NCBI GenBank assembly: GCA_021796435.1
Contig: JAJYXM010000016.1
Span: forward strand, 246,625-310,624
DNA: 64,000 nucleotides
Direction: 5' to 3'
DNA from: a bacterium
GTDB taxonomy: Bacteria; Patescibacteriota; Patescibacteriia; 2-12-FULL-60-25
A program made the translations under genes and the position numbers. Below are positions 14,529-15,471 of the stretch, piece after piece. Numbering within the stretch: position 1 is the first letter of the stretch; every line of letters starts with the position of its first letter. The notes below the pieces were generated by a model. It was not told where the DNA came from. It did not search any database and worked only from the letters and a program-made list of their open reading frames with translations.

Positions 14529-14631
14529 TGCCAAGCGCATCCAGCGTTTGGCACCCCAACCGGTTCTCTGAGCGCATGTGGCGTTCGGAGATTCCGAGGG
14601 AGTCCGATCTTTCCAATCGTAGAGGTATACC
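14529..14631 (+). repeat. Conserved ~100-nt structured leader element, copy A (about 96% identical to copy B)
   Basis: GCCAAGCGCATCCAGCGTTTGGC hairpin plus TCGGAGATTCCGA hairpin, ends in GAGGT RBS then ATG of ORF 14632. Confidence 0.55.
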
Positions 14632-15351
14632 ATGTCGAATTTCGTCGCTACTGCCACCGCCGCCGCTTCTCGCCTCGCTGCTCTGGGTAACTGGCCGTCG
14701 TACATCGACGCGGTCGGGTCGCTCACCGAGCGCATCCCGACCGGGGACGACGCGAACGCACCCGGCTTCGATGCCGGCATCGCCTGCGCGCTCGGGCTCA
14801 TCCCCGAGGACAAACAGCGCCTCTCGGCGATCCTGCACGGCGCGTACACGCCGGAGGCGGTCGAGCAGGTGCGACGCGAGGCCGTCGAGATGAGCCCGGA
14901 CAGCGAGACCACGTGGTGGCTCGCGGCGTGCAGCATCTGTCGCGAGGGCGGAATCAACAAGGAAGGGTTCTACGCACAGCTCGTCGAGTTCGAGAAGCTG
15001 TACGCAGACGCCACTGCCCGCGTCGAGGCCGCCAAGGCCGAGTTCGAGAAGATGAAGGGGCTGTTCCAGCTCGTCGACGGCGTTCCGTTCGGGACGCAGG
15101 ACGGCTGTGCTCAGGGCGCGTACATCGCCGGCCACGCCTGGGCGGTGCAGTACAACCCCGCGTACGGCATCTTCTTTGTCAGCACCTACCTGCCTTCGCT
15201 CGGCCTCGAGAACTTCCAGTTCTCGGACAAGAAGGACGAGAAGGGGCGTCCGATGAGCGGCCCGGTGCATGGTTCGCGACAGTTCGTGAAGGCCTCCAGC
15301 ATCGAGGAGCTCGCGGCGATCATCCGTTGCATCATGGACATTCGTCTCTGA
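14632..15351 (+). CDS. Hypothetical protein (239 aa), high GC (about 65%)
   Basis: ATG preceded by GAGGT; strong GC3 bias distinct from flanking genome; no recognisable domain. Confidence 0.55.
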   Translation: MSNFVATATAAASRLAALGNWPSYIDAVGSLTERIPTGDDANAPGFDAGIACALGLIPEDKQRLSAILHGAYTPEAVEQVRREAVEMSPDSETTWWLAACSICREGGINKEGFYAQLVEFEKLYADATARVEAAKAEFEKMKGLFQLVDGVPFGTQDGCAQGAYIAGHAWAVQYNPAYGIFFVSTYLPSLGLENFQFSDKKDEKGRPMSGPVHGSRQFVKASSIEELAAIIRCIMDIRL

Positions 15352-15373
15352 TCAAGCACGTACCTTTCACCAC

Positions 15374-15471
15374 GCCAAGCGCATCCTGCGTTTGGCACCC
15401 CAACCGGCTCTCTGAGCGCATGTGGCGTTCGGAGATTCCGAGGGAGTCGGATCTTTCCATTGAGGTTTATC
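15374..15471 (+). repeat. Conserved ~100-nt structured leader element, copy B
   Basis: Near-identical to 14529-14631 with 3 substitutions; ends in GAGGT RBS then ATG 15472. Confidence 0.55.

Follow-up and report, generated by a model that had tools for sequence, protein, structure and literature searches.

The stretch of DNA analysed here (the window, 64 kb in full, to which all coordinates without a genome prefix refer) is chromosomal DNA of a small-genome, Uhrbacteria-like bacterium of the Candidate Phyla Radiation (CPR, Patescibacteria). It contains a direct repeat, called T1 below, that is predicted to fold and that stands before two unrelated genes, a 239-aa open reading frame (ORF239) and a member of a small paralogue family (paralogue 2). 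We interpret the repeat as two copies of a conserved, folded leader RNA that acts in cis, likely in post-transcriptional control, and that was homogenised recently; we put the probability of this interpretation at about 0.55. The regulatory role is what we infer from position and conservation only. T1 belongs to no described family and is a candidate for a new, lineage-restricted RNA family. CPR bacteria are uncultured and, to our knowledge, few regulatory RNAs have been described for them; a literature search for riboswitch or RNA-motif papers on CPR found nothing. A previous reading of this DNA, made from the sequence without database searches, had proposed a cis-regulatory RNA, a promoter module or a mobile cassette junction. 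The first of these appears to be the best supported, on the grounds of a conserved sense-strand structure with compensatory changes that lies 5' of a ribosome-binding site in five genomes.

The repeat and its predicted fold

A repeat search over the 12-19 kb interval returned one long direct repeat, which pairwise alignment resolved into an uninterrupted core with three substitutions (14530-14615 against 15374-15459, 86 nt, 83/86 identical, 96.5%). The sequence-only reading had given 96% identity for 14529-14631 and 15374-15471; over these longer segments 92/103 positions match (89%), a 4-nt indel and mismatches in the last ~16 nt lowering the figure, and the whole intergenic regions (14495-14631 and 15352-15471) are ~80% identical (80-82%). 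The direct repeat is confirmed: with 3 mismatches allowed, 34-nt and 39-nt patterns matched exactly these two sites in 64 kb, where shuffled sequences predict 0, which bears out the claim that the repeat is not due to chance.

Both copies are predicted to form two strong hairpins, the second closed by a short CCC:GGG helix. Hairpin 1 (GCCAAGCGC...GCGUUUGGC) occupies 14530-14552 and 15374-15396, and hairpin 2 (UCUCUGAGCGC-AUGUG-GCGUUCGGAGA) 14565-14591 and 15409-15435. In copy A, CCUUCAAC is found at 14519-14526, the CCCC-AAC linker at 14554-14560 and the GGG (P2 3' strand) at 14598-14600; the GGG of copy B lies at 15442-15444. For both copies the minimum free energy is close to -48 kcal/mol, with z near -4, and 0/200 shuffled sequences were as stable, in agreement with the two hairpins per copy first described. 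The helices measure 9-11 bp, and the GC content of the leaders is 0.57. All three core mismatches between the window copies (A/T, T/C, C/G) fall at unpaired positions. Hairpin 1 is followed by ACCCC and hairpin 2 by UUCCG, neither main hairpin having a U run after it; a terminator scan gave a weak 5-bp terminator-like match in copy B only (15437-15451) and none in copy A.

Each copy leads into a Shine-Dalgarno (SD) sequence, GAGGU, at 14622-14626 and 15462-15466, placed 5 nt before the ATG of a different gene (14632 and 15472), exactly as had been noted. The two downstream genes are unrelated to each other and so are the two upstream genes; the repeat is therefore not the end of a repeated gene. 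ORF239 was rightly described as GC-rich (0.656, against 0.54 for the window).

Conservation in relatives and sister leaders

The search for further copies in relatives was positive: T1 is kept at syntenic positions in four related metagenomic genomes, L001, L005 (twice), L049 and L050/L051 (twice). In all four it directly precedes an ORF239 homolog (69-77% protein identity), and in L005 and L050 the second copy stands before a small paralogue. The window copies are 54-60% identical to the copy of any relative. In L049, a TTGACA-17-TATCTT promoter directly precedes T1 and the ORF239 homolog directly follows it, which makes T1 an element of the downstream gene's 5' untranslated region (UTR).

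A covariance model, R1, built only from the six T1 copies of relatives (L001, L005 twice, L049, L050 twice), recovered both window copies with 45-51 bits (E 1e-13 to 1e-15), and a scan of the 64 kb with filters off gave nothing else significant. In the alignment of these six copies (A5), 100% of 118 cells are paired and 4 pairs show double changes. In a model-based alignment of 10 distinct rows (A6), which is fitted to the model and inflates pair counts, 98.9% of cells are paired and 12/20 pairs show double changes; 0/500 shuffles reached these values, and slid controls were 15-56% paired. The helices thus persist through compensatory changes in both alignments. Hairpin 1 occurs as GCCAAGCGC/GCGUUUGGC, CCCAAGUGC/GCAUUUGGG and CCCGAGCGC/GCGUUCGGG, and the outer stem of hairpin 2 as UCUC/GAGA, GAAC/GUUC, GAC/GUC and GAGCUU/AAGCUC. 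Conserved G·U pairs (for example in the AAG/UUU part of hairpin 1) indicate that the strand that folds is the mRNA strand. In DNA sequence, the leaders have diverged less than the adjoining paralogue genes. T1 would accordingly combine two general marks of a structured leader: a conserved predicted structure, supported by compensatory change on the mRNA strand, and, given the presumed co-transcription, a position in the transcript immediately 5' of the downstream start. Comparison with Rfam, which had been suggested as a check, gave no family for the leaders in the window or in relatives: Rfam 15 at the gathering threshold found 3 tRNAs only in the window, nothing matched the leaders over 10400-16500 at E<=5, and L001, L005, L050 and L057 gave tRNAs only at E<=1.

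Both T1 copies lie inside one presumed operon that begins with a promoter (13957-13985) and is closed by a terminator (~16369-16397), in the order promoter, T0 5' UTR, paralogue 1, T1-A, ORF239, T1-B, paralogue 2, T2, paralogue 3, T3, terminator (Table 1). Every intercistronic gap of this operon, in every genome examined, has a structured element, and T1 is one of several sister leader types (with T0, T2 and T3) that precede every operon cistron. Read from the sequences, T1, T2 and T3 share a common plan: a C-rich motif, hairpin 1, a second C-rich motif, hairpin 2, CGGAG(U)...GAGG, and the SD with the start. The first C-rich motif (consensus about GCWCCUUCCAAC) comes just after the upstream stop codon, and the second ends in AAC (CCCAAC, CCUCAAC or CCUUCAAC). 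The helix that closes hairpin 2 varies with the type and stays complementary (CCC:GGG in T1, CCUC:GAGG in T2, CCUUC:GAAGG in T3).

The relationship between the types is also seen in alignments. The T2 leaders of five genomes align, with 91% of cells paired and 5 compensatory pairs, and T2 can also be aligned with T3, both having the common architecture. The T1 model matched the T3 leaders of L005 and L001 (E 3e-5 and 4e-4) and, weakly, the window T2 (E 0.89). T0 aligns with L057 3673-4000 at 76%, and, judged from the sequences, its motif ACAACGGGAGGAAUCCC resembles the ACGGAG..GAAUCC motif seen in T2 leaders. In L001 and L005, the T3 leader precedes a 97-aa paralogue. The window T3 (16276-16350) follows the last gene and stands just before the terminator with no cistron behind it; it is either the relic of a lost module or an element whose role is independent of a downstream start.

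The sequence-only reading had also stated that conservation of the repeat is far higher than that of the flanking coding sequences. This holds within the present genome; it does not hold as a sign of extreme constraint, as the paired T1 copies are 67% identical in L005 and 66% in L050, as far apart as copies of different genomes. The 3' parts of the L005 and L050 copies group by downstream gene. The divergence of these pairs shows that the duplication is old and the sequence constraint moderate. In the window, both copies have the same remodelled, longer hairpin 2 and differ only at three unpaired positions, which points to a recent event in this lineage, either gene conversion or re-duplication. 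The 96% identity therefore seems to reflect lineage-specific homogenisation.

Modules made of a leader and a gene differ between close relatives. L057 (GCA_031082005.1), the closest relative found, reads promoter-T0-par1-T2-par3-T3-terminator and has nothing that corresponds to window ~14495-15822 (T1-ORF239-T1-par2). L049 lacks two paralogues that are present in L050, though the ORF239 homologs of the two genomes are 89% identical. A 14-nt exact remnant of a paralogue-type T1 (T1a), TCCCAACCGAGCTT, is shared by L049 206-219 and L050 724-737; in L049 it sits between the promoter and the ORF249 leader, in front of the T1 of this genome, and marks a deletion with end points in T1 elements. Finally, ORF239 precedes the paralogue in the window, whereas the paralogue precedes ORF246 in L005 and L050. 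From these differences, the leaders coincide with the junctions of gained or lost modules.

Proposed role and competing readings

All four operon cistrons have GAGG or GGAGG 5-10 nt before the start. By comparison, 34/40 other long ORFs of the window, housekeeping genes included, show no SD motif within 20 nt of the start; as starts were taken from the longest ORF, some of these absences may be mis-called starts. Since the genome otherwise rarely uses SD initiation, cis control at SD starts would matter here. The SD-bearing starts compared were 14129, 14632, 15472, 15988 and 12537, the last of these ORFs having GAGG/GGAGG as well; examples of SD-less starts are 2391, 3776, 9794, 29997, 53845 and 62870(-). 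Several SD-less ORFs look leaderless, with a TATAAT-like box 7-12 nt ahead of the ATG.

Each T1 copy has, in this order, CCUUCAAC shortly after the upstream stop codon, hairpin 1, a conserved unpaired CCCAAC linker, hairpin 2 enclosed in CCC:GGG, a conserved G-rich CGGAG...GAGGGA segment, the SD and the start. In the mechanism that we propose, the fold and the conserved single-stranded motifs would set or regulate the access of ribosomes to the downstream start, in cis, and a protein or ligand, or translational coupling with the cistron upstream, may take part. Duplication or conversion of T1 copies may be tied to the gain or rearrangement of modules made of a leader and its gene, the recombination junction being a secondary property of T1. 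A more far-reaching version of this idea is that T0-T3 form a new riboregulator class specific to a CPR clade. The conserved junction nucleotides, YYCAAC / CGGAG..GAGG, would then make up the pocket or protein site at which a dedicated effector binds; this effector, which the operon itself might encode, would coordinately switch the SD-dependent translation of all cistrons of a fast-evolving gene array, in a genome where most other starts lack an SD. We regard this version as doubtful.

One specific form of control was analysed, 'RNA unfolding' translational coupling: the SD would be masked by the C-rich motif that follows the stop codon, and the terminating ribosome would unwind this motif. 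The SD is predicted to be mostly paired in 8/8 T1 copies (unpaired probability 0.06-0.35). The predicted partner differs among the copies, and in six control genes with an SD motif the SD is predicted to be about as accessible (mean 0.29). Duplexes of the 5' C-rich segment with the SD window averaged -7.8 kcal/mol and were not stronger than those with random window segments (-7.1 kcal/mol), with the exception of L057 T2, where there is an 8-bp CGACCUCC:GGAGGUCG match. As the partner varies and the duplex is no better than random, an SD-masking helix involving the 5' CCUUC motif is not supported. A leader peptide was rejected: an AUG is present in the loop of hairpin 2 in 7/8 copies, but the length and frame of the ORF differ and one of the L005 copies (L005a) has no AUG. 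The 4-codon MNPG mini-ORF of two L005 T2 leaders was dropped also, as it is not conserved (ACG or AAG elsewhere).

The varying partner of the SD, its similar accessibility in the control genes and the unremarkable duplex weigh against the interpretation of T1 as a regulatory leader, and several further observations do so too. The window T3 has no gene after it, so that this copy is not acting on a downstream start. The comparison comprises 8 distinct T1 copies from 5 genomes, a small sample, and one of the two alignments is the fitted one mentioned above. Searches with the downstream proteins gave neither a Pfam or PHROG match nor an informative fold match, and no ligand or regulator can be proposed from these proteins. 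The family is also very narrow in distribution. A degenerate pattern (20 specified bases, 9 variable positions) matched, among JGI metagenomes, only the 1.36-Mb contig of L005, twice, at two operon copies, and gave two chance matches on unrelated GC-rich contigs; a 20-mer of the linker had 0 matches in the viral contigs scanned. The T1 model had no match in L052, L053 and L055 or in the surroundings of more distant ORF239 homologs (39 GTDB loci). These more distant homologs have other upstream sequences, and a YTC(Y)RAC motif is not enriched upstream of them (10/42, against 29% in controls).

With riboswitches, ribosomal-protein leaders and RNA thermometers, T1 shares a conserved sense-strand fold of several helices directly 5' of a ribosome-binding site. 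Like other structured cis-regulatory leaders, it has covarying stems, its single-stranded junction nucleotides are the most conserved, and the motif is reused before different genes of one functional cluster. It differs from them in having no Rfam match and coming from about five metagenomic genomes so far, in showing neither a demonstrable conserved expression platform nor a terminator, and in being intercistronic in most copies instead of lying at the 5' end of a transcript. Translational coupling by RNA unfolding, for example in rpmI-rplT or the MS2 coat-lysis pair (reviewed in PMC12548453), likewise involves SD-bearing internal cistrons and structured RNA between a stop and the next start, and the C-rich motif, which resembles an anti-SD and lies 1-30 nt past the upstream stop, is one that a terminating ribosome could unwind. 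However, the spacers here (105-193 nt) far exceed those of most coupled pairs, the masking helix has no statistical support and the L049 copy has no upstream cistron. Several GGA motifs over ~60 nt (CGGAG, GAGGGA, SD) recall the leaders bound by CsrA/RsmA. A CsrA-binding leader was rejected: the GGA of CGGAG is in the 3' strand of hairpin 2, that of GAGGGA is in or beside the CCC:GGG helix and not in a hairpin loop, and the window SD, GAGGU, has no GGA.

The locus offers a compact candidate regulatory RNA, a clearly covarying fold of ~110-115 nt with diverged versions before every gene of one operon. It is also a clean natural example of a duplicated leader that was homogenised in one lineage and drifts by compensatory change in others, and it shows modules of a leader and a gene coming and going between close relatives. 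It has no present bearing on a long-standing open question.

The leaders might instead act in mRNA processing or stability, as RNase entry sites or barriers to 3'-exonucleases that split the transcript into segments of different half-life. Stable hairpins in every intercistronic gap, the negative SD-masking test and the position of T3, which before the terminator and without a cistron behind it would suit 3'-end protection, make this reading possible, although improbable. A simple barrier has no need of the unpaired CCCAAC and CGGAG..GAGGGAAUC motifs or of a fixed position relative to the downstream SD; in L049, T1 stands at the 5' end of the transcript, where there is no cistron before it that it could protect; and the helices, at 9-11 bp, are shorter than classical RNase III substrates. 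A primary role at the DNA level, with the repeat as a recombination module or cassette junction that mediates excision, insertion and shuffling, is in our view unlikely. Two direct repeats do flank ORF239, T1A-ORF239-T1B-par2 is absent from L057, module order changes between the window and L005/L050, and L049 and L050 differ by leader-bounded modules with the T1a remnant left in L049; there is also a documented precedent in shuffling mediated by PeSLs (PMC2839356). Yet the covarying stems with G·U pairs argue for selection on the sense-strand RNA fold and not on the identity of duplex DNA, the L005 and L050 copies (66-67%) are too diverged for efficient recombination and are retained all the same, and any duplicated sequence can be expected to undergo recombination between its copies as a by-product. 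The cassette part of the sequence-only reading is in this way upheld for the modules, which differ between close relatives at leader boundaries, and not for the defining features of the two known cassette systems considered here, PeSLs and integron attC sites.

PeSLs are mobile cassettes of T4-type phages with a strong sigma-70 promoter and a terminator stem-loop, present in many copies in hyperplastic regions (PMC2839356; PMC4122927). T1 resembles them as a short, conserved, structured intergenic repeat between small fast-evolving genes, and repeat-bounded modules differ between close relatives here too (the window and L057; L049 and L050). It was not assigned to them: neither a promoter nor a terminator pair is present inside the repeat, the DNA is a bacterial chromosome and the 64 kb hold two copies. 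Integron attC sites are structured imperfect repeats between co-oriented small ORFs, as T1 is, and T1 has YYYAAC-like motifs (CCCCAAC, CCUUCAAC); by contrast, its synteny is conserved across genomes and its structure, with G·U pairs, is on the sense strand of the mRNA. The attC core pair (RYYYAAC ... GTTRRRY) was not found, the only GTT triplets being in GTTTGGC, GTTCTCT and GTTCGGA, none of which fits the inverse core GTTRRRY, and no integrase domain or recombinase was found among 30 window ORFs scanned, which are part of the ORFs of the window. The template and variable repeats of a diversity-generating retroelement were considered also and rejected: both copies are intergenic, the mismatches are A/T, T/C and C/G, and no reverse transcriptase was seen among the scanned ORFs.

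The repeat could be a neutral by-product of a recent segmental duplication, with hairpins that have no function, and the youth of the window copies implied by 96.5% identity and the narrowness of the family agree with this. We hold it to be very unlikely, as five genomes with ORF239 proteins that share only 69-77% identity have kept T1 in synteny, its stems are maintained by compensatory substitutions, and in DNA the leaders are more conserved than the neighbouring paralogue genes. Slightly less credible still is the idea that the leaders are independent small RNA genes, such as Y-RNA-like partners of Ro60/TROVE. It is suggested by TROVE/Ro60 genes 2-3 kb upstream of the cluster in L001 (1189-2943) and L005 (57-1844) and by the structured, conserved nature of the elements. 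Each element, however, ends in an SD and a start codon and is bracketed by neither promoter nor terminator; no Y_RNA or other Rfam family matched, at permissive E values, in the window or relatives, including the 10-kb stretches around the L001 and L005 TROVE/Ro60 genes; and no TROVE homolog was found in the window by tblastn or called in the L057 stretch, while the window keeps T1-T3 and L057 keeps T2 and T3. A bacterial Y RNA was rejected on these grounds. Least probable of all is an internal promoter module with a separate transcription start for each gene, which has only the position of the repeat upstream of two genes in its favour. A scan of the plus strand of 14495-14631 and 15352-15471 found no sigma-70-like hexamer pair inside either copy, whereas it easily found the TTGACA-17-TATCTT promoter of the operon, the only strong one (13957-13985, upstream of the first cistron); the leaders are moreover GC-rich and folded. 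The promoter proposal of the sequence-only reading is abandoned for this reason.

The operon and its surroundings

The features of the operon are listed in Table 1. A promoter of the same type is found upstream of the cluster in L049, L050 and L057. The first two 1-kb bins of the operon have a GC content of 0.614 and 0.563, above that of the window.

Table 1. Features of the operon that carries the T1 leaders (window coordinates).
Feature	Position	Strand	Details
Operon promoter, TTGACA-17 nt-TATCTT with TG extension	13957-13985	+	Promoter score 10/12; near-consensus
T0 leader, 137-nt 5' UTR of first cistron; has ACAACGGGAGGAAUCCC and SD GAGGUG	13992-14128	+	Read from sequence
Paralogue 1 (121 aa), small SEDG...EFWT family	14129-14494	+	Ortholog P0122 in L057, 66% identical
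T1 leader copy A, whole intergenic region	14495-14631	+	Model R1 match 14515-14634, 45.4 bits, E 1.4e-13
ORF239, conserved ~240-aa protein, GC 0.656	14632-15351	+	
T1 leader copy B	15352-15471	+	Model R1 match 15359-15474, 50.6 bits, E 1.8e-15
Paralogue 2 (116 aa), small beta-sandwich family	15472-15822	+	
T2 leader: hairpin - CCCUUCAGCC - hairpin - ACGGAGCCGAAGG - GAAUC ... SD GGAGG	15823-15987	+	Aligns with T2 of L001, L005, L049, L050, L057
Paralogue 3	15988-16275	+	Start probably GTG 15988 or ATG 15997; longest ORF from 15931; SD GGAGG 15977-15981
T3 leader relic, no cistron after	16276-16350	+	78-82% identical to T3 of L001 and L005; also in L057
GC-rich terminator hairpin, 12 pairs, operon end	16369-16397	.	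Scored on minus strand; same hairpin closes plus-strand operon

ORF239 is an alpha/beta protein whose structure model (predicted local distance difference test, pLDDT, 96) shows only a weak resemblance to DHH/DHHA1 proteins; the named homologs come from Candidatus Uhrbacteria and other Patescibacteria. The small paralogues are predicted to be beta-sandwiches with a C-terminal helix, without an informative fold match, and share the motif SEDG...R...GxW...EFWTxSREVAEAV. The family is very rare (12 matches among 1.84 billion representative proteins) and fast-evolving: the paralogues within the window are 20-37% identical, and relatives have between 0 and 4 of them per operon. A phage origin of the region was rejected, as there was no DNA match in the phage collection and no PHROG match for the small proteins of the cluster, and housekeeping genes are present in the window (TyrRS, ArgRS, GatB, RF-1, enolase, PGK, SAM synthetase and QueA).

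A tRNA-Val(TAC) at 13672-13748 (-) adjoins the operon, on the opposite strand to it in the window and in L057. It is co-oriented with the operon and immediately upstream of its promoter in L001 (4206-4279, +), L005 (3794-3867, +) and L050 (1-52, +); this difference in orientation among lineages indicates a local inversion. Further upstream, at ~10600-12500, ~1.9 kb with a GC content of 0.57 hold only overlapping poor ORFs on both strands, with no Rfam match at E<=5 and no TROVE homolog by tblastn; this stretch could be a degraded gene or an undescribed RNA. The whole 9.7-13 kb interval has no counterpart in L057, which carries a 697-aa FG-GAP/TIG protein there. Elsewhere in the window of this CPR genome, an 865-aa ORF at 30692-33289 (+) matches the 'shoulder' domain of the major vault protein (PF11978, E 3e-11).

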